Notes: generated by a model not told the origin, from the sequence alone. A stretch of 64,000 nt of DNA from Rhizophagus irregularis (GCF_026210795.1 NC_089430.1:1178001-1242000), one strand, 5' to 3'; shown: positions 4,477 through 45,613, numbered from the stretch's first letter. Numbers and translations are program-made.

Positions 4477-5945
4477 CTATACAATTTGAAACACTTCACA
4501 TTCTTCTATATTAAAGAAATTATCAGTTCTAATCGATTTTTCATAATATTTTTTTGTACTAGAACAACATATATAATCCCATATAATAAGATCACCTCCA
4601 CCAAATGATGGACCAGATAAAGACCAATTATATATAGCAAATTTTTCATTCACTACGCGGCTTAAAACATAATTGTCAATTCTATCATTGGTAAAAGAAA
4701 ATATAAAACTATCTTTAGTAGTTTCATAATATCCATCAGATCGATATTCAATTGGATTATACCCTCCAAGAATTTCGTTACTATCTTTCACTTTAATAAT
4801 TGTTACTGTGCGAGGTTTATTATCGCAAATTAAATGAAATTTATTTGCTGAATGTCCGTCACGAGATGCGCGAAATAATAATTTAAATTTATACGAAGAA
4901 GCCAACTTGTCCGTGATTTCTAATCTATCGATCCATTTTGAGATTAATTCAATATGTTGATAAGTTATAATTTCTGAATCAATAGTTCTCTCATTTTCAT
5001 CATATTCCGATTTATCAACTGGTTTGCTATTAGGATCTGAAAGACTTAAAAAAGCTTTTAATAAATCTTTATATAAATTTTTGGGAAATATTTTTTCATA
5101 AGGTAATACTTTTTCTAAAAATTCTTTAGAAGTTAACTTATAAAATTTAATAAATGGAATACATCCTTGTAAAGTATTCTTTAAACTTTTGAAATCATTT
5201 TTTGAAAAGTTTGTAAGATCAGAGGGAAGGTCGAGATTTTGAGCAAGTCCCCATTCAAGAACATATTCCCAAATTTGAATTTCACTTATTTGACGATTAT
5301 CACTTTGAATAATTGTAACTAAAAGTTTTTCTGGGATTGAAGAAAAATTTAAAGAATTAAATATCTTATCTGGTCCTTTAGAAATTAAATCAGTACAATA
5401 TTTTTGAAGTTCCAAGAAAGAATCATTCTCATAGCTTGTTTGATATATCAAATTAAAATTTTGTTCCATCCAATTTGTTTTATTTTCAATCAAATAAAAT
5501 TGTAGATATGTGATTAATTCTTGAAGATTAAGTTCGCTAGCAGCAACTAAAACTTTAATTAAGTCTAAAGTATCATATTCGTTCAAAGAAAGTTTTCCAC
5601 CGTATATATACCTGAAATAAAGAAAATATTCTTAAATTAAAATATTATTAAAATAAAATTTATTTAATCGTCTTTAAAAATTAATTACCTTAAAATTATT
5701 TGAAAAATTTCTGGTAAAATGTTTGATAATTTAATATGTGCCAAAGTACCATCATTTTTCTTTTTATTAGTTGACAAAATTCTTCGCAAGTAAGGAGAAC
5801 GATAATGTAAAATAACCATGTGAGCACGAAAGACTTTTACGTAAGGGTCATTACCAACTTCAATAGTAATATCATAATATTCTTCATCATTTAATATTTG
5901 GAGTAAATTTTGTGATAATTTTGGTAAAAGTTTATTATCATCCAT
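4477..5945 (-). CDS. BTB/POZ-BACK-TLDc domain protein (2 exons: 5945-5689, 5611-4477; about 463 aa)
   Basis: BTB motif YDITIEVGNDPYVKVFRAHMVILHYRSPYL. The GT..AG intron 5688-5612 joins ILR|YIYGGKLSL in frame. A BACK-like middle is followed by TLDc motifs (LLFRASRDG..FHLICDNK, ILGGYNP, SFIFSF, GPSFG, EVF). Confidence 0.92.
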
Positions 5946-10117: not shown

Positions 10118-10126
10118 TATTTTTTT

Positions 10127-11145
10127 TTGATTTTTAGCTAACAAAAACGTCAAGTCTGACGTTCTTAGCTAATAAAAATCATTTTTCCTTGATTTTTAAT
10201 AACAAAAACGTCAAGTCTGACGTTTTTAGCTAATAAAAATCATTTTCCCTTGATTTTTAATAACAAAAACGTCAAGTCTGACGTTTTTAGCTAATAAAAA
10301 TAATTTTCCTTGATTTTAATAACAAAAACGTCAAGTCTGACGTTTTTAGCTTATAAAAATTATTTTCCTTGATTTTTAATAACAAAAACGTCAAGTCATA
10401 CGTTTTCAGCTAATAAAAATCATTTTTCCTTGATTTTTAATAACAAAAATGTCAAGTCTGACGTTTTTAGCTAATAAAAATCATTTTTCCTTGATTTTAA
10501 TAACAAAAACGTCAAGTCTGACGTTTTTAGCTAATAAAAATCATTTTTCCTCGATTTTTAATAACAAAAACGTCAAGTCTGACATTCTTAGCTAATAAAA
10601 ATCATTTTTCCTCGATTTTTAATAACAAAAACGTTAAGTCTGATGTTCTTAGCTAATAAAAATCAAATTTTCTTGATTTTTAATAACAAAAACGTTAAGT
10701 CTGACGTTCTTAGCTAATAAAAATCATTTTCCTTGATTTTTAATAACAAAAACGTCAAGTCTGACGTTTTTAGCTAATAAAAGTCATTTTCCTTGATTTT
10801 TAATAACAAAAACGTCAAGTCTGACGTTTTTAGCTAATAAAAATTGATTTTAATTACAAAATCATCAGACTTTTGATTAAAAAAAATCATTTTTTTTTTG
10901 ATTTTTTAATCACAAAAACGTCAAGTCTGACGTTTTTGATTAAAAAAATCATTTTTTTTGATTTTTTTTGTATTTTTTTTTGATTTTTTAATCACAGAAA
11001 CGTCAGGTTGATTAAAAAAATCAATTATTTTTGATTTTTCAATCACAAAAATGTTAAGTCTGACGTTTTGATTAAAAAAAAATCAATTTTTTTTTGATTT
11101 TTCAATTACAAAAACGTCAAATTTTTGACGTTTTTGATTAAAAAA
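10127..11145. repeat. Tandem repeat with a unit of about 60 bp (about 12 clean copies to about 10850, then degenerate)
   Basis: Unit TAATAACAAAAACGTCAAGTCTGACGTTTTTAGCTAATAAAAATCATTTTTCCTTGATTTT, with an internal inverted repeat AAAAACGTCA-AGTC-TGACGTTTTT. Confidence 0.93.
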
Positions 11146-11604: not shown

Positions 11605-14600
11605 ATGGCTCTTAGTAATGATAAAGGTAATAATCATATATATAATATAAACATTTAATACAATTAGAATTCTAATATTTCAAACAAATTTTTAATGTAA
11701 TAAAACTAGTTTCTGGTAATATTGAATTATTTGAAAGAAGTAGTACTAAAGAATTTGGAGGAAATGACTCTAAGGAATTCAAAGAAAGTGGCTTTAAAGA
11801 ATTTGAAAAAAGTACTACCAAGGAATTTAAAGGTATATTAAATATGCTAAAATATTAAATTTTTATTTGTAAATACATTTAAATGCTATCTATAATAATA
11901 CCTTATATAATATACAAATATAGCTCGTAAGTTAATAGGTTATCTTATAATCGAATAATAATGGAATTACTTATCATTTTTATTACATTCCATGTAATTA
12001 AATAATTCATTTAATGATTAAAATACTATAGTCAGTAAGTTATTAGTTATTTAAACTTTTAATTCTTTATTTTGTTTATTTTACATAATATTCAATAACT
12101 AAATTCTTTTTTTAATTAACTATTTAATAATTAATTGTATTACAGACGGTAAGTTACAATATCATATTTATTTGTTTAATATTTTATTATAATTCAACTA
12201 ATTATATTTTTAATTAAACAACTAGATTGTAAGTGATATATTTAATTTACAGTAAATACTTTATATTATATTTATTTTTAACTAATAATTAATTAATAAT
12301 ACTAGGGTTTAAGTTATAGATTTTTATATTTCTATTATTTATATAATTTAAACTAACTAAATTCTTTATTTATATAGATCGTAAGTTATAAGTTATTTAT
12401 TCAATTCTATTATTACTTGTTGTTATAATATTTACATATAATTTAAACTAACTAAATTCTTTATTTAAAAAATTATTTTATAGGGAGTAAGTTATTTATT
12501 TAATTCTGCCTATTATTACTTATTGTTATAATATTTACATATAACTTAAACTAACTAAATTTTTTATTTAAAAAATTATTTTAATAATATAGGGAGTAAG
12601 ATATTTATTTGTTTCTATTAATACTTCTTCCTTATAAAAAATAAATGTCCGGAAAAGATGATATAAAATTTTAGGTTAAAGCAATTATAATGATGATCAC
12701 TTGTTGATCATCTTTTTGTAACAAATTTTATGAAAAAATATTTCAGGTCAATTTCCAGACAAATTCCGGACAAAAATGAATGTCCAGAAATGAGCGTGTT
12801 TTGGATCAATTTCTGTCCAGAAAATGTCTAGAAAATGTCCAGGTACTTTTAGACAAATTTTCCAGACAATTTCTGGACAATTTCCGGACACTTATTATTT
12901 ATAGGGCCTGTTATAATATTTACATATAATTTAAACTAACTAAATTATTTATTTAATAGATAGTAAGTTATAAGTTATTTATTTAATTCCGTTATTACTT
13001 ATTGATATGACATTTACATATAATTTAAAACTAAATTCTTTATTTAAAAATTATTTAATAATTTAGAGAGTAAGTTATTTATTTAATTCTATTGTCACTT
13101 ATTGTTATAATATTTGCATATAATTTAAACTAACTAATTTCTTTATTTAAAAAATTATTTAATAATTTAGAGAGTAAGTTATTTAATTAATTCTATTATT
13201 ACTTATTATTATAATATTTGCATTAATTGCATATAATTTAAACTATTAAACTAATTTCTTGTTTAAAAATTTATTTAATAATATAGGGAGTAAGTTATTT
13301 TTTTAATTACATTATTACTTATTGTTATAATGTTTGCATATAATTTAAACTAACTAAATTCTTTGTTTAAAAATTTATTTAATAATATAGGGAGTAAGTT
13401 ATTTATTTAGTTCTATTATTATTTATTGTTATAATATTTTCATATAATTTAAACTAACTAAATTATTTGTTTAAAAATTATTTAATAATACAGGGAGTAA
13501 GTTATTTATTTATTTCTATCACTTATCATTATAATATTTGCATATAATTTAAACTAATTAAATTCTTTACTTAAAAAATTATTTATTAATATAGGAAGTA
13601 TTTATTTATTTAATTCTATTATTATTTATTGTCATAATATTTGCATATAATTTAAACTAACTAAATAAAAAATATTTAATAATATAGGGAGTAAGTTATT
13701 TAATTAATTCTATAATTACTTATTATTATAATATTTGCATATAATTAAACTAACTAAATTCTTTGTTTAAAAATTTATTTAATAATATAGGGAGTAAGTT
13801 ATTTATTTAGTTCTATTATTATTTATTGTTATAATATTTTCATATAATTTAAACTAACTAAATTATTTGTTTAAAAATTATTTAATAATATAGGGAGTAA
13901 GTTATTTATTTATTTCTATCGCTTATCGTTATAATATTTGCATATAATTTAAACTAATTAAATTCTTTACTTAAAAAATTATTTAATAATATAGGAAGTA
14001 TTTATTTGTTTAATTCTATTGTTACTTATTGCTATAATATTTATATATAATTTAAATTAACTGAATTCTTTAATTAAATAGATCGTAAGTTATAAGTTAT
14101 TTATTTAATTCTGTTATTATTTATTGTTATAATATTTGCATATAATTAAACTAACTAAAGTTTTTATTTAAAAAATTATTCAATAATATTGAGAGTAAGT
14201 TATTTATTTAATTCTATATTATTGTTATAATATTTTCATATAATTTAAACTAACTAAATTCTTAAAAAAATATTTTGTAATATAGGGAGTAATTATTTGT
14301 TTAATCTATTATTACTTATTGTTATAATATTTATACTAACTTTTTACTTATAAAAATTATTTAATAATATAGCTTGTAAGTGATTTGTTGTTACTATTGT
14401 TTATTTATTTTATAAATATTTATTTGTTAATTGAATTCTATTCATATAAATTTCCGTTAATTTAGTTAGTAAGTTGTGAATTATAAGTTATTATTATTTA
14501 CATTTATACAAAAACTAAGACATAAGACATATATTATATTTAAATTTCTATTTAAATTTTAGAGTAAGTGTTGATTTTAATCTTAAATTTTAGTGTAATT

Positions 14601-16006
14601 TTTAATATAAACTTCAATAATAATTTTAATTGCTTAAATCTATATAGATATGGAAAAAGTGGAAATGCAATTATGGATAATTTTATTTCGGAAAAAAATT
14701 TAAAATGGATTCCTTATGATAAATTTGAAAATATTGAATATCTTGATAAAGGAGGATTTGGTACTATATACAAAGCTAATTGGTTTTATAATAATGAAGA
14801 TAATAAAGTAATTCTTAAATGTCATAATAATTTAAGTGAAAATTTGAATGAATTTTTAAATGAAGTATGATAATATTTTATTTATTTTTTTAATTTGAAT
14901 CATAATTAATTTGTACTAATATATTATCAACTTTTTTATAGTGGGAATATCACGTAAGTTGTTTAGATTCAAATGATATTATTTATTTTTATGGGTTTAC
15001 AAAAGATCCAGATACTTTGAAATATATGGCAGTAATGGATTATGCAAACAAGGGTAATTTAAGAGGAAACTTAACAATAATAATCAAAAGTGGTTGGAAT
15101 AAAAAATTATATATGTTATTTGGAATTATTTCTGGACTTAATGGTATACATAGACAAAATCTTATTCATTGTGATTTTCATGATGGCAATATTTTAAATC
15201 ATAATGAAAGAAAAGTTTATATTAGTGATTTAGGATTATGTAAATCTATAAGATCATTTTTGAAAAAATATGATATTTATGGTGTTATACCATTTATGGC
15301 ACCAGAAGTTTTAAGAGGCAATTCTTATACTCCAGCTAGTGATATATATAGTTTTTCTATGATTATGTGGGAATTTACATCTGGGGTACCACCATTTAAT
15401 AATAGAGCACATGATTTTCAACTTAGTTTAAGTATTTGTGAAGGTGAACGTCCTGAAATTATTGAAAATGCTCCACAATGTTATGTAGATTTGATGAAAA
15501 AGTGTTGGGATGAAACCCCATTAAAAAGGCCATCTTCTGAAGAAGTGTTAAATATTATTAGTGATTGGATTTTTCTTCCATCTAATGTGAAAGTTGAAGA
15601 TATTAATGAAGAATTAAAATGCAATATTATGGAATTTATAAATGCACCAATTGAGCATAACAATAATCTTGCTACTGAGTCTCATCCACAAGCATATTAT
15701 ACAAGTCGCTTACTTGATTTTACTAGTAAACAGTTGAATGAAACTCTTAAAAATAGAGATTTGCAAGCTTATTATTCAAGTCAATCTACTAGTGGAAAAG
15801 TGAATGAAGAAAGTGAAGATTCACAAGCTAGTGTAAAATTAAATGAAATGCTAGTAAATAAAGATTTAGATGATTGTATAGTTAATTTGAAGTCATTAGG
15901 TATGTAATATAGTACATAAAAAGAAATAATTTTGCAAATTATTTCAGTTATGTGAAATTAATTTTATTTATTTAATTATTTAGATATTAAAACAGATAAA
16001 AAATAA
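11605..16006 (+). CDS. TKL-like protein kinase with a micro-exon-encoded N-terminus (exons 11605-11626, 11710-11832, 22 x 3 nt, 1 nt at 14563, 14648-14864, 14942-15899, 15984-16006)
   Basis: The kinase exons are clear (WIPY, GGFG, VILK, HCDFHDGN, DLG, APE, DIYSFS, GERP, CW..P..RP). The 5' model rests on AG/GT sites and on phase consistency from ATG 11605 to the 14648 exon. Confidence is about 0.95 for the kinase part and lower for the 5' model. Confidence 0.82.
11920..14570 (+). repeat. Tandem intron/micro-exon array (unit of about 80-115 bp: ..CTAAC..TAG|NNN|GTAAGT..)
   Basis: 25 YAG-N(1 or 3)-GTA modules, two of them with a broken site. The units from about 12350 to 14340 are highly similar and most carry an ACTAAC branch-like motif. 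Confidence 0.85.
12630..12906. mobile_element. CCC-ended MITE (CMC/CACTA-like) inside a micro-exon intron
   Basis: TIRs CCTTATAAAAAATAAATGTCCGGAA / CCCTATAAATAATAAGTGTCCGGAA, imperfect 3-bp TSD CTT/CCT, internal TGTCCAGAAA repeats. It interrupts the intron consensus. Confidence 0.75.
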
Positions 16007-24285: not shown

Positions 24286-24529
24286 TAAGGTTGCTTGCCG
24301 AAACCTAGGGGTTTAGGCAAGATGGCGTTTCGCCGAAAAGCGAAATTCTGCCGAAACTATATTAAAGTTATATTAAAAAACTGGCGAAACTTTGGAGAAT
24401 GGTGAAACTGCCAAAACTTATTATAAATGCCGAAACTGCCAAAACTCTGCCGAAACTATAATAAATCTATAGTAAAATTTTGATGAAACTAATTGTAGGA
24501 TTTTGAAGAGGTTTAGACAAGCAACCTTA
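24286..24529. mobile_element. hAT-like MITE (244 bp) inserted at a kinase start codon
   Basis: TIR TAAGGTTGCTTG..CAAGCAACCTTA, perfect 8-bp TSD ATGGATTC (24278-24285, 24530-24537), internal GCCGAAAC repeats. Confidence 0.9.
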
Positions 24530-27500
24530 ATGGATTCCTTTATCAAAATTTTTAAAAAGAAGATTAAGTCATGTGATTGTGATTATGAATGTAACGCAAT
24601 ACGGTTTAAACAAAATTTTAATAATTGGACTAGTGGTAATAATGATATCAATAAATTTATTCAAAATACTCAGCTATCAGACCATAATCATTATTGGGTA
24701 GGAAATGCATTAGAATGGATACCTTATGATAGACTTTATGATGTTAAATATATTGCAGAAGATGATGAGTTTGGCAAAGTGTACAGAGCAAATTGGATTG
24801 ATGGATGCATGAATGAATGGAATGATGAAAATTGGGAAAGAAAAGGTCAAAATATGTTTGTAATTCTGAAAATTTTAAAAAATCCATCAAGTATTACGTT
24901 AGAATTTATAAATAAGGTATTATAAATTTATCCAAAGTTTCATTTTTTTTGACATTGTAATATGCCATTTTGTGAAAAAAAAGTTGTTTTAAGAAACAAA
25001 TGGTTGAATATTTTATTTTTACCAATATTTCTAACTTTAATATATTGTAGATTGCGGTATCTCATGAAGTTCATGGAATAACTCAAGATCCAGAAACTAA
25101 GAACTATATGGTAGTTGAGTGATATATGTGAAAAATGTAATAAAGTATGTAATTCAATACATTTTCAACGAAATTTCCAAAATTGGACTAGTGGTAGTAA
25201 TGATATTAATAAATTCATTCAAGATACTCAGCTATCAGTTCATGATGATGCAAGAAAGTTGTTAGAATGGATACCTTATAATAGACTTTATGATGTTAAA
25301 TATATTGCAGGAGATGATGATTTTGGCGGCAAAGTGTACAGAGCAAATTGGATTGATGGATGTATAATTAATGATGATTATAGATTTTGGGAGTATGACA
25401 GTAGTTGGGATAATAAAAATCAAAATTGGATAAGAAATAATCAAAATATGTTTGTAATTCTGAAAATTTTAAATAACCCAGCAAGTATTCCCTATGAAAA
25501 AAAAATTCTTTAAAATATACTTAAAATGTACTTAAATATTTTAAAATATATCTAAAATATACTTAAAATTTTTAAATGTACTTATAATATACTTAAAATT
25601 GCAATTTTAAGTATATTTAAAGTATAAAATTTTATACTTAAATTACATTTAAAATATACTTAATTGCAATTTAAATATAATTTAAGTATAATTTAAGTGC
25701 AAAATTTTATACTTTAAATATACTTAAAATTGCAATTTTAAGTATATTTTAAGTATATTTTAAAATGTTAAGTATATTTTAGGTATATTTTAAAACATAT
25801 AAGTATATTTTAAGTATATTTTAAAAAATACATAAGTATATTTTAAGTACATTTTAAAGAATTTTTTTTTTATAGGGATTACATCAAAATATATAGATAA
25901 GGTATAATAAATTTATCAAACGTTTCATTTTTTTTTTGTAAATTATAATATAAATTAATCACATTGTACTACTATGCCATTTTGCGAAAAAAAAAGTTGC
26001 TTTAAGAAACAAATGATTGAATATTTTATTTTTACTAATATTTCTAAACTTTAATATATTGTAGATTGCGAAATCTCATATAGTTTATGGAATAACTCAA
26101 GATCCAGAAACTAAGAACTATATGGTAGTTGAATGATATATGTGAAAAATGTAATAAAGTATGTAATTCAATACATTTTCAACGAAATTTCCAAAATTGG
26201 ACTAGTGGAAATAATGATATTGATAAATTCATTCAAGATACTCAGCTATCAGCACATACTTATTATGAGGTGAAAAATGCATTAGAATGGATACCTTATT
26301 ATAGACTTTATGATGTTAATGTATTGCAGAAGATGATGAGTTTGGCAAAGCGCACAGAGCAAATTGGATTGATGGATGCATGAATGAACGGAATGATGAA
26401 AATTGGGAAAGAAAAGGTCAAAATATGTTTGTAATTCTGAAAATTTTGAATAATCCATCAAGCATTACATTAGAATTTGTAGAATTTAAAAAGAAGGTAT
26501 AATAATATTCCATTTTGTGAATCATAATATAAATTAACCATACTGTACTGTGCCATTTTGTGAAAAAAATTGCCATTTGTTTTAAAAAACATATTTGAAA
26601 TTTTATTTTACTAATATTTCTAACTTTAATACATTGTAGATTGCGGTATCTCATAGTAGAGTTTATGGGATAACTCAAGATCCAGAAACCAAGAACTATA
26701 TGGTAGTCTTGAATGATATATGTGAAAAATGTAATGTAACGTGTATGTCAATACGTTTTCAACAAAATTCCCAAAATTGTACTAGTGGAAATAATGATAT
26801 TGATAAATTCATTCATACTCAGCTATCACATACTGCTTATTCAATAAAATGGATACCTTACGATAGATTTGATGATATTGAATTCATTGCAAAAGGTGGA
26901 TTTGGCATAGTGTACAGAGCAAATTGGATTATGGAAGGGGTTGTGGCCTTGAAAACTTTGAATGATTCAAAAAATATTACATTAGAATTTTTGAATGAGG
27001 TATAAATGATTTGTAATTTTTAAACTTGAAAATTTCGATTTGTTAATAATCTTCATTTTTAATTATAGATTATATTGCATCATAAAATAAATTATTCACA
27101 TAATATTATTAAGTTCTATGGAATAACTCAAGATCCCAAAACAAAAAATTATATAATGATTTTAGAATATGCAAAGAATGGAAGTTTACGAACATGTTTA
27201 AATACAAATTACAATAAAATTGGGTGGTATAATAAAATAAAGAATTTATATGACATTGTATCTGGGCTTGAAAGTATTCATCAAAATGACTTAATCCATC
27301 GGGATTTACATGCTGGCAATATACTGATGAATGAAAATAGGATGTATATAACTGATATGGGATTATGTAGACCTGCATCAGAAAATATAAAAAATAATGT
27401 CTATGGCGTATTATGTTATATGGCGCCTGAAACCTTACAAAAGCACAATTATACCAAAGCTTCTGATATTTATAGTTTTGGTATAATTATGTACGAAGTA

Positions 27501-28495
27501 ATTTGTGGGTTACCTCCATATCATGATGTATGTCATGACAATATTTTGGCAATAAGAATTTGCCAAGGACTTAGGCCAAGGTTTAATATTATAGTACCAC
27601 AATTAATTGTAAATTTAATTAAAAGATGTTTAGATGCAAATCAATTAAATCGTCCAACAGCAAAAGAAATTAAAGAAATTTTGGCGCAATGGTGTTGCGA
27701 AGTGTTTAATAATCAAACAGAATTAGGAAAGCAAATTATAGAAGCAGAAGAAATAAATAATAATTTACCAGTGAACAGTACACCTTCAATCAGTTTAGGG
27801 TTATCATATACAATGCATTCAAAAGCTATTTATACAAGTAAATTACTTAATTTTAATAATCTTTCCAAACCAAAAAATACTGATGATTATTATGAGCAAA
27901 ATGATAATATAATTAGCTTGAAATCTTTAGGTATTATATATTAAAGAATAATTGAATTAATTGTAAAAAATGCTAATATATTTTTATTTATAAATAGCAT
28001 CTTTACAAATTGATATTTCTAAATTGAATATTAATGATCTTTTAAAACCAAAAAAATCCTGATGTTCGTTATGATAATATGATTAGCATGGAATCTTCAG
28101 GTATTTTTAAAAGAATATTCCAAATTAATGATAACTATACTAATAATAATTCATTCATTAAGCAGAATCCTTACAAATTGATAATTTACAATTAAGAATT
28201 GGTGCTGAACCAGATAATTCTGATTATTCTTACGAAAAAAATGATGATATGATTTCTTCAGGTATTTATTAAAAAAGTATTCAAAAAATTAAAAAATAGT
28301 ACATATTAATTAATTTATTATTCATTAAATAGAATCTCTACAAATTGATATTTCTCAAGTCTCAACTGAACGTTAGTAAAAATGGTCTTAAATATAAATA
28401 GAAAACAAAGCTATTATATATATGTAGAATATACTTATTTTATTTGTTCGTTTTTTAGACCAGGATAGCCAATCTAAAGGCAAAGAAAAAATTTA
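24530..28495 (+). pseudogene. Disrupted TKL-like kinase with four tandem N-terminal modules; the catalytic part (26640-26999, 27069-27930) is open
   Basis: Four copies of CxxC..F..NWTSGN..IDKFIQ..WIPY modules. Frameshifts occur near 25113, 26127 and 26320, and a MITE sits in a coding exon. The kinase domain has GGFG, VALK, HRDLHAGN, DMG and APE. Short repeated 3' exons follow to about 28495 (end approximate). Confidence 0.8.
25490..25877. mobile_element. CCC-ended MITE (CMC/CACTA-like, 388 bp) in a kinase exon
   Basis: CCCTATGAAAAAAAAATTCTTT..AAAGAATTTTTTTTTTATAGGG with perfect 3-bp TSD ATT. The interior is a foldback of AAAATATACTT repeats. Removing it restores PASITSKYIDK|GT. Confidence 0.9.
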
Positions 28496-31400
28496 GACCG
28501 ACTATAACCATTTTGCTATATCTATTAGTTATTGTAGAATTTTTTTTCTAATTATATTTTCACCATTATGGTTTAAAAATTTAATTATCATTAATCTTCG
28601 TAGAAAGGTGATAAATTTAAACTTTATTATAGTTTAAAGAAGAGGTTATTTTTTCTTTTTTTATTTTGCTTTTCATTTAATAATTAGTGAATTGCAACTT
28701 TTGAGTAGTTATAATGATAAAATGGAAGAATAGGAGAAGGAATAGAAATATTGTTAGATAAAATTTTAAATTATACTGGTCTCATTGTTTAACTTTTATG
28801 TATTTTTATTCAGTTATCTTATATTTACTCAATTCATTAATTAAACAAAAACTTTTTAAAACTAAAATGTAGAGTAATAAAATTAATAATTTGTTTCTAA
28901 TTAAAAAAATTAAATTATATTGCAAAATGGAATAAAATGTTCAGTTGTCCATAATTACTATATTACAGCTTTACTGATGATATTTTTTAATTTATCCATT
29001 AAGGTCGAATTCACATAAAAGAACTAGTAACTCATAAATTTATTTATCTTTTTTTTAAAGTAAACAACTCAGCTAAACGCATTTCTTTATTAAGTAAATA
29101 ATGTATGAGAACAAGTTATATAGTGAACATAGAAATACTTGAAATTATACAATAACGAATCTCTCCATTCCGAGCGAACTTTGGCCCCTACCAGTCACCT
29201 TTAACCATTACAAATAACCCAAAAAAAAAATTATATTAAAGAAAGAAAGTCACAAATTCGGGAGGAAAAGCAAGATCACATAAAAACCCTAGGATATTTG
29301 TAACCTTCTAAACGAAAATAAATACCAGACGCCACCCTACATATAGAATCTAAAACAAAAAACAAACACTATTAACGCAAAGGATGGCTACAAAAAAAAA
29401 GATGATGTAATCTATTTGTGCGAACTAAATGTGGTTCAAAAATTACGTAATCGTTATCGATCATACCATCACCGCGGTGCTGACGACAATCCAAAACTTC
29501 CGAATTTGTTCCAAGCACATGTAAAATTTGTACTGCGCCACATAACTGAAAAAATTCTCAAGAAGCCTTAGAAACACGAAGCCCAGAAACAATCCAAGTA
29601 TAGCCGAAATCGAGAAAACGTTGTCGGTCCTCGTTCAAAACTTATAGTTTACCGCAGAAACAGCGTGGTGCGCAAAGCCCTTTATATTTATATGGTAAAG
29701 AACGCTTGTCATTTGACCTGTAAAAAATCTGATCCGTGTTTTATCTTTACATATTTTCTCCGTAAATGTATCATTTTAATGGAATTTATAGCCTTAAATC
29801 ATGGAAATTTTCATCTCGCTAACATGGATATCCGTGAATGTATCATTTTCACGGAATTTTTACGGAAGACACGGAGAAATAATGGAAATATTCGGATAAA
29901 AATTTTTATAGGGTTGTTGGCAAGTAGAACTCTTGCAAAAGGCCTATAATAGTTTTCTTCTTATCAACTATCCATGACAAAAGGCTCAAACCGAAAGTAA
30001 AGGAGCAAAAAACAAGTTGGTATTGTGTTTGGTGTCAAAAAATGAACTTTTTATAAGCATTTTATGAACTTTTCCAACTATTGTTATGTCCTAAATTTGT
30101 GGACCAGTTATTATTATACTTACCATATACAGTAATACTATATTAACAATATTTAATTCTAGTAACAATTTCTTTTAAAGTTTTATAATATACTTAAAAA
30201 TTATATATTTGGAAAAGTTAATAGAATTTTGTTGAAATTGTTATTTAGATAACTATATTTATTTTTTTTTTATTGAGTGTTAGGCAACAACTAAATACTT
30301 TAAAGACATTAATTAATATTACTGATGATAAATTATCTTCTAAACAAAATAATTCATCCTCACAAGATAATTCAATTAATGATAATGTTGAATTACAAAA
30401 TCATGTGTTCCTCTTCAAAAAATTTCTTTGTCTCCAAATTCCTTAGGAAATGAAATGCCTATATTTCAAAATTGTACCTTTTCAAATGTTTCTTTTTACA
30501 TACAAAAATAGTTTCGATTTTATAATTCTTTATGTATAAATGCAAATAATATAATATCATTTTTTATCTTCAATAGTATAATAATAAGTTTAATAATAAA
30601 AGTGTAATTTATTATGTGATATAAACATGTTCCGTGAAAATATCAGTAAAAAAAGTCACAGAAATTGATTAGTAAAAACCGTGGGATAATAAAAATTATT
30701 CTTTTAACGCAATTGTTAATATAAGGATTTTAAAATTATTCTCTTGATTTCAGTTGACATAACTATCCCTTATGTAGAAAAAAAAACAAATAATAATATA
30801 ATGATAATCAAGATTTTAAATATGATTTAATCCTAATTCATAATATTAAAGTTAATTTCAAGCTTGATTGATGGTACTTAATTTCAGAGGAATTGTATTT
30901 CTTTATTTCCATAAACAGGGTTCTATGATCTATCGCCTGCATCTTATTCTTCATTCTGATTCTTTCCATAAAAGCTGATAATTCTTAACCACAACGTAGC
31001 TACAAAAAGAATAGCATAATTTATGTGAAATTGTTACATGGTTCATTCTTGCTATAAATAATTTTCTCGATTAACAAATATAGAAAGAACGGCTGGCATA
31101 AAATATTCACATTATATTTGATACTTGATTAGCACAATAGGACCTTTTTTGCTATAAAAGTTTCATAATCAATTTTGTTAATCATACGAATTTCAAATTC
31201 GGAATTTGAAAGTTAGAATAACCTTACATTTTTTTTTGAACATATAAAAATATAATAAATATTAAAATAATAATCTTTAATATTCATTCGTATTGATTTA
31301 AATTTAGTTTTACAAATTAATAATTATGCAATGTCACGTACTGGACGGATAGTAAGTATAATGTCCCTTGTGTCCCTTAGGGTTGGCGCTTTATTGCAAA

Positions 31401-31743
31401 ATTATTGCATGACACATAAATTCCGTGATCATATAGGGAATATGATTTTTTGGTCAAAAACATAAGATATACTTTTTTTCGTACCACAAACTTCCTATAA
31501 AATTCATGAATAGTCTTATCGATTAATAATTAATAGAAACTCATTCTTTCCATAAAAATTCTCCTATTTTAGCCGATAAAGCATAAATTAAATAGATAAA
31601 TGATTCCATACTTGCCAAAAAAAGCCGATTGATAATGATCATCACGTATTCATTTATTGGATTTTGTCGATCACATGGATCACATAAATTTTTATAAAAG
31701 CATAGCAGAATTATTTTGATTAATTACTAATACTATTCGTATT

Positions 31744-33129
31744 ATGGATCAATCAAACGAAGAAGAAAATAAACATGGATGGTGTGTAGAATGTCAACAA
31801 ATAAATACTGGACGGCTTTGGTGTCGAGCTTGTAATTCAAAAAGATTTCAACAAAATTTTAGTAATTGGACTAGTGGCAATGATGACGTTGATAAATTTA
31901 TTCAGAACTGTCAGTTGTTAGCAAAAGATAAATTTCAATTATTAGAGTGGATACCTTATGATAGATTTTATAATATTAAATATGTTGCAAAAGGAGGATT
32001 TGGTAAAGTATATAGCGCAATTTGGAAGGACGGACATATATCACATTGGAATCTGAGTAAAAATAGTTGGGAAAGGCGTGGTTCAAATAAACATGTGGCT
32101 CTTAAAAGTTTAAATAATTCACAGAATATCACATTGGATTTTATTAATGAGGTATAAATTAATTATTGTGAAAATTTTTTATGTTTATTTTTATTTGTTA
32201 ATTCACCAGTAATTTATTTAATAATTTAGATTATACCACATGTTGAATTAATTCTACCAAATCAATACATTGGATATTATGGAATAAGTCAAGACCCAGA
32301 CACTAAAGATTATATTATAGTTTTGACGTATGCTGGAAAATTACAAAATTATTTTAAACGTAAAGCGCCATATAATAGAAAACAGCCTTTTGATTTAAAA
32401 CTGAGACGTAGGATTATTGCTTTGCTAGATATTGTAAATGGACTTAAGAAAATTCATGAAAAAGAAATACTTCATCGAAATTTACATGTTGGAAATATAT
32501 TAGTCTTTAAAAAAATAGCTTACATAACTGACATGGGATTATGTAAACCAACAAATTACAAGGAATTTAATATTACGGATAATAGTGTGTATGGTGTTTT
32601 ACCTTATGTAGCTCCTGAAATTTTAAGGGGACAACCTTACACTAAAGAATCCGACATTTATAGTTTTGGTATAATTATGTATGAAGTAATTTCAGGAATA
32701 CCTCCATATAATGGAATTGAACATAATGAATATTTAGCATTGAAGATCTGTGAAGGGTTGAGACCGAGATTTAGTATTAATGTACCTCAATTAATTTTGC
32801 ATTTAATTAAAAGGTGTTTAGATGCAAATCCACTAAATCGACCAGATGTGAAGGATCTTTCAAAAATTTTTCATGAATGGTTAGATGAATTTAAGCGACA
32901 TAATAGGGAAAAAACAGAATCAACTAAAACAGAATTAATTAAACAAATTGAGGAATCAGAAAAAATTAATAATAGCTCAACAGTTTCTACTAATTTATCT
33001 TTAACAAATGAACTGTGTTCTAAAGATATTTATACAAGTAAATTACTTAATTTTAATAATCTTTCTGAACCAAAAAATTCTGACGATTATTATGAAAATT
33101 ATGATAATATATCGAGTATTTTATTATAG
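31744..33129 (+). CDS. TKL-like kinase-fold protein, probable pseudokinase (exons 31744-32151, 32230-33129)
   Basis: CxxC/WCxxC N-terminus, WTSGN, WIPY, GGFG, VALK. The phase-0 intron keeps the frame. The catalytic loop reads HRNLHVGN; DMG and APE are present. Confidence 0.88.
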
Positions 33130-34433
33130 GGTTGTTTATTTTTGGGTACAAATATATTGTTCGAAATCTACAACTTTTTTTTTTATTAAGTTTAGCAAAA
33201 TCATTTTATGATCATCTAATTTGATCATAATACAAAGATTGAAATACAAAGAGATTTAATTCATTCGTAATTAACTGTATAAGTTATTTTTACGAGAGAT
33301 ATTTTATCATTGGAAATTTTATTTTGATAAATGGATGTATGTACAACGCTGACTAATCATAGTGAATCATAATTTTTCCTTATATAATTAAGATAAATAA
33401 ATCAGTCTGTAATTGAACAATATTTTCATTTTCATATTTATAAATTTATTATATTTAGTGAGTTTATTAAAAAATATATATATATATAATGTAAAATTGA
33501 AAACTACGGTATTACACTTATTTCTAGAACTGGTGACCGGCACCACATCATGCGATTTATAAAATTTTTATTTTATGCAGTGTAAAATTTGTTTACCTTG
33601 ATCACATGACCCTATAGTTTCGATAATCATATTAGGGTTATGAATAGAATCGTCAAGACCTTGACGACATTGTGGATCTTGGGTAATGGTAATTGAGGCG
33701 ATAGTATTATTTGTAATTTTTACTAGAGGAAACTCAGTAGGTTCAATAAAGTTGCTAATTATTTTCAGTCATACGAGTGTCTTACCCTTTTTCGTTATGT
33801 TTTTTATGTTGTTTAATTTATTTATTTCTGATAGTATTTTCCGAGTTCTCACTGTCACTAATAGCTTCAGACGAGCCAAATACTGTAAGTAGTATCTTTG
33901 GATGCTTGTGCAACGGTGGCCAATCAATTTTAAATTCAATCATGGACTGCTGAAACCAATCAATCAATCAATCAAGAAATTTGGGAGCAACAAATTTCAT
34001 TGTTCAATTACAAACTGATTTTATTTATGTAAAGAAATCTATAATTAGCGTTAAACATAAACTAGATGCTTGTCGTGTACTGTAATTATCAAGAGCATGA
34101 AAAAAATAAATAAAATAAAATAAGGATAAGAAATAAAATAAAATAAGAAATAAATAAAATAAAAAAAGTTTCATGATACACTATAATTAGTGTTAAACAT
34201 AAACTATATACTTGCTATATACTGTAATTATCAGGAGCATAAAAAAAATAATAATAAAACAAAATAAAAATAAAATAAGCAAATCATATAATAAACTATG
34301 ACCGGTGTTGAACGAAAACCATGTGTGTTTTCAATCACATATAATATCATTTAATATCAAAAACGAAAAAAGTATATAAATAAATCAAAATGCATCTTAA
34401 TTATTCTATGATTTTTAACTTGTATTCGTAAAT

Positions 34434-36032
34434 TTAATCAGTAATTGCACATTCTAAACAATCGTCATTACTGAATTTTAGAAAATACTCTGTAAAAGAA
34501 TTAAGTAATTAATATAAATAATATGTTAACAAATAAAAAATTTGTTTAAATTAAATTGTTTAATACCTGAATACTTGATTATGTTATCACTTGATTCATA
34601 ATAATCATCAGAATTCTTTGGTTCGGGAAGATTATTAAACTTAAGTGCTCTACTTTTATAAGTACTATCCTCTGAATGTATCATTTTATTTGTCAAAGGT
34701 GGATTACTAGTAGCCGATAAACTATTATTAAGTTCTTCAATTTGTTCAACTAATTCTGATTTACTTTTCTTATGACTTCTAATCTCTTTAATCCATTGAC
34801 GAAAAATCCTTGCTAATTCTTTTGCTCGTGGGCGGTTTAATGGATTTGCATCTAAACATCTTTTAAATAAGTACACAATTAATTGAGGTACTTTGGTGGT
34901 ATCGAATTTAGGTCTTAATCCCTGACAGATATTTAGTGCTAAAAATTCATCCTGAGCAACATTATAATATGGAGGCAATCCTGAAATTATTAAATACATA
35001 ATTATACCCAAACTATAAATATCAGAAGCTTGGGTATAATTTCCTCCTCTTAAAATTTCAGGAGCCATATAAGGTAAAACACCATACTTCTTATCTTCTA
35101 ATTCATCATAATTTGCCGGTTTACACAATCCCATATCAGTTATACAGCTTATTTTGTCAGATACTATATTTCCAACATGTAAATCTCGATGAATTAGTTC
35201 TTTGTCATGAATTCCATTAAGTCCACTTGAAATATCAGATAAAATATAGAGTTTATTTATCCACAATCTCAACAAAGCCTCTTCACTCGTATTATAAATT
35301 TTATATCTTTTCAATTTCAAAGCACTTTGTAAATTTCCATTTCTAGCATAATTCGTAACTATAATATATTCCTTTGTAATGGGATCTTGAGATATTCCAT
35401 GACATTTAATAACATTTCGTATATACTCATTTTCATGAATTTTAAGGTATGATGTAATCTAATTATTTTTTAAAAAATTGGTTAATAAATTAATAAATTA
35501 AAAATAATCAAAATTATTAATAAGTTAAATTATATTATCATACTTCACTAATAAATTCTAATGTAATATTTTGCGATTCATTTAAACTTTTAAGAGCTAC
35601 TTGTACTTTTGCATATCTTTGCAGTTGATTTTTATACTTATCCCAAAGTAAAATAAAGCCGTCTTTCCAAATTGCACTATATACTTTACCAAATCCTCCT
35701 TTTGCAACATATTTAATATTATAAAATCTATCATAAGGTATCCATTCTAATACTTGATAACGATTTCTCGCTGTTAATTGAGTATTTTGAATTAACTTAT
35801 CAATGTCATCATTACCACTAGTCCAATTACCAAAATTTTGTTGAAATCTTTTTGAATTACAAATTTGACACCATTCTTTCTGTGTATTTACTTGCTTGCA
35901 TTCAAAACATTTTCCATATTTTTTCTCACAATATTTTGAAAAACACGTCTCACAAAATTTTGTTTCTGAATCTACTTGTTTGCATCGAATACACTTTTTG
36001 TATTTTATTTCTTTTTCATTCAATTGATTCAT
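34434..36032 (-). CDS. TKL-like protein kinase (exons 36032-35544, 35458-34567, 34489-34434)
   Basis: Several CxxC pairs, WTSGN, GGFG, VALK, HRDLHVGN, DMG, APE. GT-AG introns sit at positions shared with the paralogues. It is convergent with the 31744 gene. Confidence 0.9.
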
Positions 36033-37292
36033 AGCTTAAATATATTATTTGTATGTTTTCTACTGAAAATTTATTAAAAAAATCGCAACAAATGTAGAGT
36101 ATATAAGCATGATTGATAGGATCGACAAATGAAACTTGTTTAGGACTCCCATTCTTACCGAGATTTATTTCATTATTAACTGAAATAGATTAACTACATT
36201 TATAGAAAGAATGAATTTTTTTGTGATTCATCTTGATAGACATCTCAATTTGTATAAGTTGTTAGCTTCTTATGGAAAAATAAAACAGTGTTGACGCAAG
36301 TAATACTATTCAACCATATATTGAATCATACAAGAAAACTTTTAATGTGAATAAATTAATTTCTAACTTTTCAATGTAACATCAAAGAAATGCATACTAA
36401 TATTTTAAAGGAAAAAATGAAATTTATATTACTCAAAGATCTATAAATGATATAATTTCCATATTTAAAAGTTAATGACTAGTTTCACTAACAATAAAAT
36501 TTAAGCCGTACCAAATTACCCGGGTCTTCATATGATGCAGTAACACTTAGTGTGATAGGGCCCAGAAATATATATACAGGGTAGGGTACACAGATGCGTC
36601 ACCATTATAATGGAGTTAGACGGATGGTTTGCGCACAATTTAAGATTTCATCCATAGTTATGTCATCAAGATTGCGTATTTTTATAAAAATTTTTATATG
36701 TAAAAAATTAATTTGCGAATTTTGGCTTAAATTTAGTTGATTTTATATATATTAATATATTAACTGTACGTACTTATTTAGCTAACCGCATTGTAATCTT
36801 CAGTATTAATTGAAGGAAATTCTAAGGATTGGAAAGTATAATTTTGACTATTTTGAAAAATATTATTTAAAAATGGTAAAATAGGACAAATTTTATTTTT
36901 CATATTAATATTTGATTTTATAAATAATACATCGGGAGTTGTATTCTATGTAGATTTATGTGAAAAAATATATGTAAAATCTACATACGCTATTCTATGT
37001 AGTTTTAAGGACCCAACGTGGAATTCACATGGATCTGATTTTACGTGTAAAATTGATTTATATGGAATTTATATAAATTTTTTATTTAGATTCAAATAAA
37101 TTTTATGTATTTTTTAAATAGTTAATATTATAAATTGTAAATTGCGAATTTATTATTATTTACTTTAAATAGTATGCAATATTACGTCTTTCTATAGCTA
37201 TTACATTTTATGACTAACTAGTAATCATCTGATGATACTGAAATAGAATCATTATTATTACTTTCATCATCCTATAAAAAATATCATATTAA

Positions 37293-38005
37293 TGTTACCA
37301 CCGATTTGTGTAGTTCGGGAGGGCAGTAACAGAAATATATACGGGTTAATTTATAGAATTTGACTAACAATAGGCAGTAATCGGCAATAAATCGTGAGGA
37401 AATGGGTAGGGTTTATCAACAATTAGCAATAGATTTATAAACAATGTATATTTATTGAATGTATAACAATCGGAAATAAAATTGACAATAAAAACAATAA
37501 CGAAATGTATAAAATTGGAGTGATCGGCGGGTTCTTTATTAACAATTACAAAAGAATTTCCTAATATTACTGCCTCTGCCGGCGCTCTGTAATATTCCCA
37601 AGGTTCTATCTAAGTGTTAATAATCGAAAAATCACTTCCCCGAAACCTCAGCGGAATTTCTTCCCTTAAATATTATTCAAAATTTGGGACGATTAGTGCT
37701 TTGGCCAACTCGCCCGTTATTCAAATCGTCCAAAGTACAACTCGTTTTCCGGTCAAATCGTCCATTGTACGAATCACCCATCACAGCCATAATTGATTCC
37801 CACCAAGCCATACGCCACATTTCCTATAAACTATATATATAAATTGTATAAATAAACTATATAAATAAAATAAACTATACTATATAAATAAACTATATCA
37901 AATAAAAATAAAATAAACTAAATATAAATAAATAAATAAATAAATAAAATATACTATAAAAAAATAAATCATATAAGAATAACTATATAAAAAATTCCCG
38001 TGACA
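37293..38005 (-). repeat. 3' LTR (713 bp)
   Basis: Direct repeat of 44901-45613; only two mismatches were seen by eye. Confidence 0.97.
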
Positions 38006-38014
38006 TTACCCCCT
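38006..38014 (-). other. Polypurine tract
   Basis: Minus strand AGGGGGTAA immediately before the TG of the 3' LTR. Confidence 0.65.
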
Positions 38015-38041
38015 GAAGAAGGGTGAGCCCCTGCGAACCTT

Positions 38042-38659
38042 TTACAAGGTTTCGCGCATTATTCGTCGAGCTTCCGGTAATAATTCGTCATAAAAGTCTC
38101 CTTCACTCATTTTAGTTAAACGCGTCGGGCAAATGTAGGCGACTTTAGTCAGACATTGGACTCCTCTTATCGCGAAGAGTTCGTAAACTCTCCGAGAAGT
38201 TTTCTTAACATCTTTAGCGAATCGTTGTCCAACTTGTTCTTGAAGGATTCCATAGTCCTTCTTCGTCCATCCTCGAAGAGACAAGAGCTCGCCTAAATAA
38301 TAATAGACCTCTAATCTTTCGTGAACGCTTTTCTGTCGGAAGGTGGTCTGTCGTATCATTCGGGTTAATTTCCTCAATAGTTCATCTTCGTTCCCTCCAA
38401 GATAATTCGGTCTTTGATACTCGTAATTTGTCAGGTGATGAAGGTCTATCTTACAACGATGCACGATTTCGCTTTGTTCATCGTAGTCTAGAATCGTCTT
38501 AAAATCAATAGAAACGATTCTTTCGGCATCAGAAAGCAACAAATTCGTTGGGGTGATGTGAAACTCTTCATACTCCCCTTTTTCCTCTAACCACAATTGT
38601 AAGAGAGCCTTCAGTTGTCCTTTGAACTTTTCGGAGAAGGTTTCCATGATAACTGTCAT
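38042..38659 (-). CDS. Extra ORF (205 aa) in the env position of the retroelement; unknown, apparently soluble and helical
   Basis: Intact ATG-initiated ORF between the integrase and the PPT, with element-like composition. No obvious signal peptide or TM segment. Confidence 0.75.
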   Translation of the reverse strand: MTVIMETFSEKFKGQLKALLQLWLEEKGEYEEFHITPTNLLLSDAERIVSIDFKTILDYDEQSEIVHRCKIDLHHLTNYEYQRPNYLGGNEDELLRKLTRMIRQTTFRQKSVHERLEVYYYLGELLSLRGWTKKDYGILQEQVGQRFAKDVKKTSRRVYELFAIRGVQCLTKVAYICPTRLTKMSEGDFYDELLPEARRIMRETL

Positions 38660-38721
38660 TTTTCGTCCTTTGAAGAGTCACGGCTATTTAAATGTCTTTT
38701 GGCTGGTCTCTTCTCACGCTA

Positions 38722-39981
38722 TTAATTAGTAATCGTTCTTTCATAATATGAGCGAATCTGGTCTGCGTGGACAACTTTTTTCCGAAGTTTTCCCTCTAAG
38801 GTCCTTAACTTGTAAGTTCCGTTTGGTCTCACATCATGAATGTAATAAGGGCCATGCCACTTTGAGTCAAGTTTCTTGGCTCTAAAGTTGCGTAATAGGA
38901 CCTTTTCACCAATTTGGTACCGGTGTTCCTTAATTTGTTTGTTATGTCGTTCTACTTGCCGTTTTTGCGCATGTTGAATATTCTCATTTGCTTGCTGTCG
39001 ATCATCAATCAAGTTTCCGGCTAGCTGACCTAATCGTCGGAAATATAAATCTTCAAAGCCTCGATCGGATCTATCCTCAAAAGGATAAGTTGGAACTTCC
39101 AGTTCGATCGGCAATACTGCGTCTCGCCCATAGGTGAGGTAAAAAGGTTCATAACGGGTAATGTTTTGACGCATGGTTCGATAGGCAAACAAAGCCGAAG
39201 GGATGAATAAATCCCAATCATCTTTTCTTTCTATACAATATTTCGCTAAAAGTTCACAAAGGGTCCGATTAAACCTTTCTACGAGACCATTCGTCTGTGG
39301 ATGATAGGCAACAGACAATCGGTGCGTTATACCAAGGCGTTTACACAACGAATCGAGCATCTCGTTAACGAAGTGTGTCCCTTGGTCGGTTAACAATTCC
39401 TTGGGGCACCCGTGGCGGCAAACAATATCTTCGTAGAAAAACGAGACTACCGAAGTAGCCTTTGCGTCCGGAAGAGCACGTGCTTCTGGCCACTTTGTCA
39501 GATATTCGGTGGCTACTACAATATACTGATTGCCTTTCTTGGTCAATGGTAGGGGTCCCACGATGTCCATCCCAATCCGGTCGAAAGGTTGACCCACTTT
39601 AATAGGGTGAAGAGGTTCGGTTTTGATCGGCCGCTTCCTTCTTTGACAAGTATCACATGCTTGTACATAAGCTTTGATGTCGTCGCCCATCTGGGGCCAA
39701 AAATACTTTTCCTTTATTGCGCGAAAAGTTTCATTGAATCCAAAATGTCCAGCGAGTGGATCATCATGGAAGCCACGCAATATTATTTCCATTTCATTCT
39801 TTTTGATCACTCGCATCGGTCGTTGAGGATTTCTTATATTTCGTCGGTATAATATGCCATTCTTTATTATATAACTGCGGGCTTTATTCTTAAAATTCCT
39901 TAATTGAGTAGTATCGAAGTCTGCAGGTAGCGTTAAGTCATCCAAGTATCGTATCAATCGGTAGTATGTATCCGTATCCAT
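38722..39981 (-). CDS. Stand-alone retrotransposon integrase (419 aa)
   Basis: HHCC zinc finger (HDDPLAGH..CDTC), DDE core (MDIVGP, LTDQG, LVERFN) and GPY module. No chromodomain is evident. Confidence 0.93.
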   Translation of the reverse strand: MDTDTYYRLIRYLDDLTLPADFDTTQLRNFKNKARSYIIKNGILYRRNIRNPQRPMRVIKKNEMEIILRGFHDDPLAGHFGFNETFRAIKEKYFWPQMGDDIKAYVQACDTCQRRKRPIKTEPLHPIKVGQPFDRIGMDIVGPLPLTKKGNQYIVVATEYLTKWPEARALPDAKATSVVSFFYEDIVCRHGCPKELLTDQGTHFVNEMLDSLCKRLGITHRLSVAYHPQTNGLVERFNRTLCELLAKYCIERKDDWDLFIPSALFAYRTMRQNITRYEPFYLTYGRDAVLPIELEVPTYPFEDRSDRGFEDLYFRRLGQLAGNLIDDRQQANENIQHAQKRQVERHNKQIKEHRYQIGEKVLLRNFRAKKLDSKWHGPYYIHDVRPNGTYKLRTLEGKLRKKVVHADQIRSYYERTITN

Positions 39982-40070
39982 GGCTGGGTTAAATCAATAG
40001 GGTAATCCGAAAATCAAAATCAAAAAATGCGTGTGTCCCGGGTATTGTTTGGAAAAAGATTTTACTTCTA

Positions 40071-43000: not shown

Positions 43001-43112
43001 TCGTGACCGGTCGATTTCTTTCAGCAGGATACGCTTCGAACAACGTACAAAATGAGGGGTTTTGTTCCGGTTTCGCACCCTTACCCTCAAAGGATGCACC
43101 TTCTAGTTTAAA
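40071..43112 (-). CDS. pol: pol (protease-spacer-RT-RNase H), reached by -1 frameshift; two internal 1-nt indels (about 41279 and 40896)
   Basis: Protease ILDSGA. RT motifs RFCVDYR, LDLASGYWQ, MPFGL, YLDD. RNase H motifs FTDAS, TELE, ITDH, NVDSLSR, followed by TGA TAG. Confidence 0.93.
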
Positions 43113-44860: not shown

Positions 44861-44876
44861 ACAAAATAGTAAGGGC

Positions 44877-44897
44877 CGATCCTTATAAGGAGCACCA
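44877..44897 (-). other. Primer binding site
   Basis: TGGTGCTCCTTATAAGGATCG begins 3 nt after the 5' LTR. Its complement CGATC-CTTAT-AAGGAGC-A-CCA has the geometry of a tRNA 3' end. Confidence 0.85.
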
Positions 44898-44900
44898 AGT

Positions 44901-45613
44901 TGTTACCACCGATTTGTGTAGTTCGGGAGGGCAGTAACAGAAATATATACGGGTTAATTTATAGAATTTGACTAACAATAGGCAGTAATCGGCAATAAAT
45001 CGTGAGGAAATGGGTAGGGTTTATCAACAATTAGCAATAGATTTATAAACAATGTATATTTATTGAATGTATAACAATCGGAAATAAAATTGACAATAAA
45101 AACAATAACGAAATGTATAAAATTGGAGTGATCGGCGGGTTCTTTATTAACAATTACAAAAGAATTTCCTAATATTACTGCCTCTGCCGGCGCTCTGTAA
45201 TATTCCCAAGGTTCTATCTAAGTGTTAATAATCGAAAAATCACTTCCCCGAAACCTCAGCGGAATTTCTTCCCTTAAATATTATTCAAAATTTGGGACGA
45301 TTAGTGCTTTGGCCAACTCGCCCGTTATTCAAATCGTCCAAAGTACAACTCGTTTTCCGGTCAAATTGTCCATTGTACGAATCGCCCATCACAGCCATAA
45401 TTGATTCCCACCAAGCCATACGCCACATTTCCTATAAACTATATATATAAATTGTATAAATAAACTATATAAATAAAATAAACTATACTATATAAATAAA
45501 CTATATCAAATAAAAATAAAATAAACTAAATATAAATAAATAAATAAATAAATAAAATATACTATAAAAAAATAAATCATATAAGAATAACTATATAAAA
45601 AATTCCCGTGACA
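44901..45613 (-). repeat. 5' LTR (713 bp)
   Basis: Direct repeat of 37293-38005. Confidence 0.97.

Follow-up and report, generated by a model that had tools for sequence, protein, structure and literature searches.

How does a gene come to carry a long series of coding exons that each have the size of a single codon, and what do such exons bring to the protein? The question is raised by a predicted kinase gene of the arbuscular mycorrhizal (AM) fungus Rhizophagus irregularis, found in a 64-kb window (GCF_026210795.1 NC_089430.1:1178001-1242000), that is, the whole stretch of AT-rich, eukaryotic DNA that was analysed and from whose start all coordinates are counted. According to our analysis, a linker lying between the N-terminal repeat and the kinase domain is probably built codon by codon from 22 micro-exons of three nucleotides and one of a single nucleotide, which would together form a frame-neutral, recombining cassette, and a run of eight arginines would be one recent outcome of it. 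The architecture is striking and real. What the DNA establishes is the sites, the open frame, the requirement for the single-nucleotide exon and the tandem duplications; the full splicing of the array in this copy is a prediction.

Results

A predicted series of codon-sized exons ahead of the kinase domain

Between exon 2 and the first kinase exon lie exactly 22 sites of the form [CT]AG-NNN-GT(AAG/AAT/ATT), from 11924 to 14468, and in addition a TAG-A-GTAAGT at 14563. In 300 dinucleotide shuffles of 11833-14647 the mean number of sites was 0.34 and the maximum 3, versus the 22 observed. Moreover, the strict pattern YAGNNNGTAAGT matched 18 times in the 64-kb window, always inside the array block, with 0.51 matches expected by chance. 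The full spliced model comprises 28 exons and 27 introns, all GT..AG and 77-364 nt long, and encodes 469 residues with one terminal stop; the array introns measure 77-113 nt, three longer ones excepted, and the micro-exons supply 67 of the 1,410 coding nt.

Joined in phase 1, the micro-exons give a 23-residue peptide with 14 Arg or Lys residues, eight Arg being consecutive, that continues in frame into YGKSGN. This reproduces the peptide proposed in an earlier note on this DNA, which had also rightly read the GGA and GAA exons as both encoding Arg in phase 1, because the preceding exon ends in A, and had described an eight-residue KEF period in exon 2, found here as a 24-nt period with 3.5 copies at 11729-11813. 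A phase-0 reading, rich in Gly, Ile and Leu, was rejected, since phase 1 is where exon 2 leaves off and since the AGTAA that such models need is missing from the RNA tail described below. The frame also breaks without the single-nucleotide exon, and 5- or 7-nt versions of this last micro-exon were rejected, with a stop codon and a broken frame. Two other units look dead (Table 1); the second of them, read as a one-nucleotide exon, would shift the frame.

The earlier note had described the tract as stop-free. The open frame was indeed found, but it is no more than chance provides: 58.7% of 20,000 permutations of the observed triplets were equally stop-free, versus 6-8% of random triplets. Because most permutations of the same triplets are open as well, the stop-free status is weak evidence, and we rejected it as a sign of selection.

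The four introns of the 5' block that were compared are more diverged than the central units, with 41-62% identity among themselves and 51-77% to the latter. One array intron houses an insertion resembling a miniature inverted-repeat transposable element (MITE), and the splice sites of that intron are intact.

Table 1. Features of the predicted kinase gene (positions counted from the start of the window)
Feature	Position	Strand	Description	Basis
Exon 1 (predicted)	11605..11626	+	start codon, 22 nt, phase-1 donor	N-terminus same in database paralogues, e.g. P0006
Exon 2	11710..11832	+	8-residue periodic xEF repeat, phase-1 end	repeat analysis, model
5' block	11924..12380	+	five 3-nt exons: 11924, 12032, 12146, 12226, 12378	
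Dead unit	12306..12308	+	acceptor intact, donor changed, likely skipped; within a 149-nt intron	sequence
Central tandem array	12381..14375	+	intron+triplet units of ~100 nt, 75-99% identical	Tandem Repeats Finder, unit comparison
Central-array exons	12484, 12593, 12960, 13067, 13171, 13287, 13391, 13494, 13595, 13688, 13791, 13894, 13995, 14082, 14286	+	3-nt exons	
MITE-like insertion	12630..12906	.	26-nt terminal inverted repeats (88%), internal 11-nt repeats	
Exons of the eight-Arg run	13287..13997	+	eight exons, (GGA,GGA,GGA,GAA) x2, recent four-unit doubling	unit identities
Dead unit	14192..14194	+	acceptor TAG changed to TTG, likely skipped	sequence
Terminal 3-nt exons	14373..14468	+	CTT (14373), TTA (14466)	paralogue RNA consensus (CTT, TTG there)
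1-nt exon	14563..14563	+	A, GTAAGT donor, phase 1 to phase 2	required for open frame
First kinase exon	14648..14864	+	YGKSGN..., Gly loop, VILK	profile match, read ends, translation
Main kinase exon	14942..15899	+	HCDFHDGN, DLG, APE, plus C-terminal tail	profile match, homologue search
Last coding exon (predicted)	15984..16006	+	with stop	spliced model

As judged from its predicted protein, the gene is a member of the expanded Rhizophagus family of Tyr/Ser-Thr (TKL-like) kinases. The main kinase exon matches PF07714 (PK_Tyr_Ser-Thr) with 111.6 bits against a cut-off of 23.1, and a protein search with it yielded 1,989 candidates, 451 of which matched at E<=1e-80; the best match is 83% identical across the full query, the named proteins among the 120 matches listed are Rhizophagus kinases, and the identity of the kinase exon to family members reaches 90%. 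It is this score, together with the close Rhizophagus homologues, that places the gene in the expanded repertoire. The VILK, HCDFHDGN, DLG and APE motifs, which we take to have catalytic roles, all stand in unbroken frame. In Pfam, the two kinase exons matched kinase-type families alone, and exon 2 had no match that passed the cut-off. The N-terminus looks hydrophilic by eye, and the ESM Atlas held no usable match for the N-terminal 75 residues of the paralogue P0006.

A tail matching the predicted micro-exons in the RNA of paralogues

Reads from three raw-read runs (two studies) and one contig run were placed on 14620-14900 at 84% likeness; one of the raw-read runs was guessed to be RNA, and it behaves as RNA. 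Coverage was assessed in this way for the first kinase exon together with its borders. In all three raw-read runs the depth was zero at 14620-14639, and 175 of 912, 172 of 1055 and 59 of 560 reads, respectively, had loose ends before 14651. The consensus of these loose ends finishes in CTT-TTG-A-ATT in each of the three runs, which is the tail predicted for the phase-1 micro-exons (CTT, TTA in this copy, the single A, then the exon). Seventeen more letters upstream keep the triplet register, mostly as ATG, ATT, ATC and GTT; the paralogue consensus stays in register for about eight exons upstream, and its hand translation is Asp-rich, not Arg-rich. As a control, loose ends past 14864 agree with the beginning of the following exon, as ordinary splicing predicts.

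It is for paralogues, and not for this copy, that this consensus shows the phase-1 micro-exon tail in mRNA. Indeed, among the 2,527 raw reads placed, 5 were at least 99% alike to the window and 20 were 95-99% alike, and it is because near-identical reads are so few that the RNA data speak for paralogues. The proposal that the triplets act as phase-1 coding exons was supported by this RNA tail, by the zero intron depth and by the single-nucleotide exon, which is both needed and kept in two relatives (L001 and L002, see below).

The RNA also bears on a reading modelled on the nank genes of Tuber, in which the central three-nucleotide exons are optional and the gene yields many linker isoforms, the form with eight arginines being one of them. 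Skipping keeps the frame by construction and creates a stop at just 6 of 276 skip junctions; moreover, the donors of the two GAA exons are weak, and another two units are no longer intact. However, the paralogue consensus, with some eight exons in register and no sign of exon 2, indicates that wholesale skipping is not the majority outcome there, and the mostly 77-113-nt array introns have strong donors and nothing that forces mutual exclusion. We consider splice diversity of this kind unlikely.

Relatives of the array in metagenomes and public gene models

A metagenome scan reduced 340 pattern matches to six loci, three of which (L001, L002 and L003) belong to this subfamily and include upstream DNA; the other three (L004-L006) were uninformative. 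The motif of the single-nucleotide exon is intact in two of the first three: L001 and L002, distant soil contigs that are 62-64% identical to the window in the first kinase exon, both have TTTAG-A-GTAAGT at a distance of one intron ahead of that exon. Intact AG-NNN-GT sites are found in L002 and L003. The ~100-nt intron unit of the array recurs at L002:34-129 and L003:200-308, where the protein of the adjoining exon is only ~60% identical. In L002 its identity to 14 central units of the window is 75-87%; the corresponding values are 80% in the kinase exon, 62% in the last intron and 63% (maximum 70%) in shuffles. Its being more alike to the window units than the coding exon DNA suggests that the intron unit is constrained or exchanged between loci.

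Among 335 database proteins, 82 carry the family motif, and in none of these 82 public models did we find a correctly phased tract or the RNA-supported tail. Sixteen of them read SK directly before the kinase exon, the residues that a gene finder obtains by running the single-nucleotide exon on into the donor that follows. Nine models chosen by eye (POG77171.1, POG70100.1, RGB39444.1, PKY46521.1, PKC63825.1, PKY50234.1, POG80531.1, RGB33918.1 and RGB28678.1) have stretches rich in Gly, Ile, Leu, Met and Val at this place, 17-59 residues long in the eight measured, and the locus studied here is also rich in these residues when read in phase 0. We infer that the nine stretches are the same kind of array, mis-phased. 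Unlike the model of this locus, public Rhizophagus kinase models either leave the array out or seem to translate it in phase 0, with a spurious SK. The array architecture is probably family-wide and mis-annotated.

Origin of the arginine run

Is the arginine run what the array is for? The eight exons that encode it are two copies of one four-unit block, which share 96% identity across three units and 90% across all four; the unit pair 14/18 is 99% identical and the pair 15/19 97%. For the central array as a whole, Tandem Repeats Finder reports a period of 103, 13.4 copies and a 400-nt super-period. Without one half of this doubling, four Arg would remain, and six if the two GAA exons, both of which have the weaker GTATTT donors, were skipped; any repeated GGA unit in phase 1 is automatically Arg. 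The run is likely a by-product of the recent tandem duplication of a ~100-base intron+triplet unit, and poly-Arg appears specific to this copy.

The basic character was not conserved among the relatives, as seen in the Asp-rich RNA consensus and in the annotated arrays. When the maximal number of Arg/Lys junction codons was computed for eight of the nine models, on the assumption that they are mis-phased arrays, five stayed below half at most (7/35, 12/31, 15/34, 21/43 and 25/58) and three could be mostly basic (P0046 with up to 19/24, P0134 with 15/20 and P0138 with 10/16). On these models, some paralogues could carry a basic tract, but this is not a family rule. The exon 2 repeat, for its part, is acidic in all eight paralogues examined (e.g. 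11 versus 5), and in this copy its charge is near neutral (9 D/E and 8 K/R over 11712-11831), so that the entire N-terminus of this copy would seem to have moved toward basic.

The earlier note suggested that the Arg/Lys tract could be a signal for nuclear or nucleolar targeting, for nucleic-acid or anionic-lipid binding or for cell penetration, its charge being set by exon inclusion; we weighed the reading in which such a signal is under selection. A composition of 14 Arg/Lys in 23 residues agrees with this idea, as do the two exon variants of the run both giving Arg, the KKRR of the predicted tract, which we take to fit the pattern of a monopartite nuclear localisation signal, and the three annotated paralogue arrays that could also be mostly basic. 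However, the consensus of the expressed paralogues is acidic and five of the eight annotated arrays cannot reach half Arg/Lys. Moreover, the run results from a recent doubling in which GGA units become Arg automatically, and its being stop-free is expected. The paralogue comparison did not support the view of the tract as a conserved signal; a function of poly-Arg is not supported, and selection for such a signal seems to us quite improbable.

A different kind of selection may be hinted at by the triplets themselves, which vary more than the intron bodies (11/48 versus 93/1387, P=0.0004, the units not being independent and the last one possibly chimeric). This variation could be a sign of diversification.

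Neighbouring features

Upstream of the gene, at 10119-10844, a 61-nt tandem repeat with a near-palindromic core is present in 12 copies with 93% matches. More Glomeromycotina-type kinase genes, of other subfamilies and 28-54% identical to P0006, occupy 24476-36035; the window-wide scan for the strict three-nucleotide exon pattern found none in this cluster. On the minus strand, 37826-45590 resembles a long terminal repeat (LTR) retrotransposon, with gag-, protease-, RT-, RNase H- and integrase-like open reading frames (ORFs) recognised by eye, interrupted frames and matching repeat blocks at both ends. An intronless ORF of 442 residues at 51669-52997 is unlike the surrounding fungal genes and might be of horizontal or endobacterial origin. 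Another ORF, of 384 residues (4477-5631), looks by eye like a member of the BTB-BACK-TLDc family, which is common in these fungi. Finally, 56499-57383 holds a GA-rich 20-nt tandem repeat (28.5 copies) with long low-complexity open frames.

Discussion

How could a cassette of codon-sized exons work? Each short intron of the array has its own GTAAGT donor, a putative CTAAC-type branch point and a YAG, and would most likely be spliced by intron definition. Intron-by-intron recognition is established in fungi with short introns. Because each ~100-nt intron would be recognised on its own, the size of the exon would be irrelevant. Each unit would add exactly three bases at one phase, making the cassette frame-neutral, so that unequal crossing-over or conversion between units or between paralogues could add, delete or swap single codons with no frameshift. 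As a consequence, each kinase copy would possess its own low-complexity linker, Arg-rich here and Asp-rich in the most highly expressed paralogues. The least certain step is what such a linker might do: if disordered, it could modulate partners, location or kinase self-inhibition through its charge, with no particular composition being required.

Several observations weigh against this scenario. The RNA signal reports on paralogues, 25 of the 2,527 raw reads being at least 95% alike to the window; no reads cross the central exons of this copy, read placement having covered the first kinase exon plus its borders, and the RNA consensus records the commonest letter per column across many paralogues (agreement 0.61-0.69) and not one molecule. 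Nine of the 82 public models read LE directly ahead of the kinase exon. This points to paralogues in which that exon opens with AA and in which the same mRNA would arise without the single-nucleotide exon, so that the RNA tail alone does not prove the latter. Among the relatives, the single-nucleotide site of L003 is changed, L001 has no intact three-nucleotide site within 525 nt upstream of its single-nucleotide exon, and the paralogue arrays were deduced from protein models, not from DNA. Moreover, over the 16 central units GT and AG were not significantly more conserved than the intron bodies (1/64 versus 93/1387, P=0.12), and the excess variation of the triplets could mean selection on residues rather than a by-product.

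Part of this evidence fits a rival explanation, in which the central units form a satellite of intron origin, mostly removed by splicing or located in a little-used gene copy, only the flanking micro-exons being real. The scarcity of near-identical reads (just 5 of the 2,527 reached 99%), the MITE-like insert and the two broken units, and the outcome of the splice-site conservation test all agree with it. However, 15 of the 16 central units that were scored have lost neither GT nor AG, the kinase frame and its catalytic motifs are intact, and the unit with its three-nucleotide sites also occurs in distant relatives; we judge this explanation very unlikely. The codon-wise cassette could, on the other hand, belong to a system dedicated to generating diversity in a large kinase subfamily of AM fungi. 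A conserved intron cassette of ~100 nt would be copied and exchanged, both within paralogues and from one to another, and alternatively included, giving beside the kinase domain a hypervariable peptide, written codon by codon, that serves as a specificity or non-self sensor under diversifying selection and that all the public annotations we examined would have overlooked or put in the wrong phase. We put this forward tentatively and regard it as rather doubtful.

If the codon-wise cassette is family-wide, it provides a concrete way for sequences to vary within the kinase expansion of AM fungi, itself unexplained, and many Rhizophagus kinase models would be wrong at the N-terminus. AM fungi were long considered asexual. 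The poly-Arg itself is of lesser importance than the exon array. Among the openly accessible papers listed by our searches, we found no description of micro-exon arrays in Glomeromycotina kinases. The comparisons that follow begin with the kinase repertoire of R. irregularis, which counts 2,533 members (PMC10234402).

In the micro-exon genes (MEG) of Schistosoma, exons of 3-81 bp and introns of up to 5 kb encode secreted proteins (PMC10526429). The likeness lies in the runs of short exons and in protein variation through duplication and splicing; here, by contrast, the micro-exons amount to 67 of 1,410 coding nt, the introns are of ~100 nt and the product is an intracellular-type kinase. A closer parallel is the nank (NACHT-ANK) family of Tuber melanosporum, with its codon-sized mini-exons (Iotti et al. 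2012, as cited in PMC4986451 and PMC10197012), the alternative splicing of which has been reported (PMC4986451, PMC10197012). Both cases combine multiple 3-bp exons, an expanded and fast-evolving family, a mycorrhizal fungus and frame-neutral variation of the protein. However, the host gene is an NLR of an ascomycete in Tuber and a kinase of the Glomeromycotina here, and the Rhizophagus array differs in its phase-1 exons, its frame-setting single-nucleotide exon and its visible growth by tandem DNA duplication.

Isolated tiny exons are documented in fungi and plants. Coprinopsis cinerea has 27 three-nucleotide exons in 26 genes and 13 single-nucleotide exons (PMC12230235), and single-nucleotide exons are known in the plant genes APC11 and VPS55 (PMC8831610). 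As in these cases, the exons described here have ordinary flanking introns and GTRAGT donors, are required by the frame and are missed by annotation; the site at 14563 in particular is, as in APC11 and VPS55, a single base between AG and GTRAGT that the frame requires and relatives keep. The tiny exons of Coprinopsis and plants, however, occur at about one per gene, whereas 22 follow one another here in a self-duplicating array. The 22 consecutive three-nucleotide exons of this one gene thus approach the total of 27 in the whole Coprinopsis genome (PMC12230235), and the array provides a clean test of how the spliceosome handles codon-sized exons back to back.

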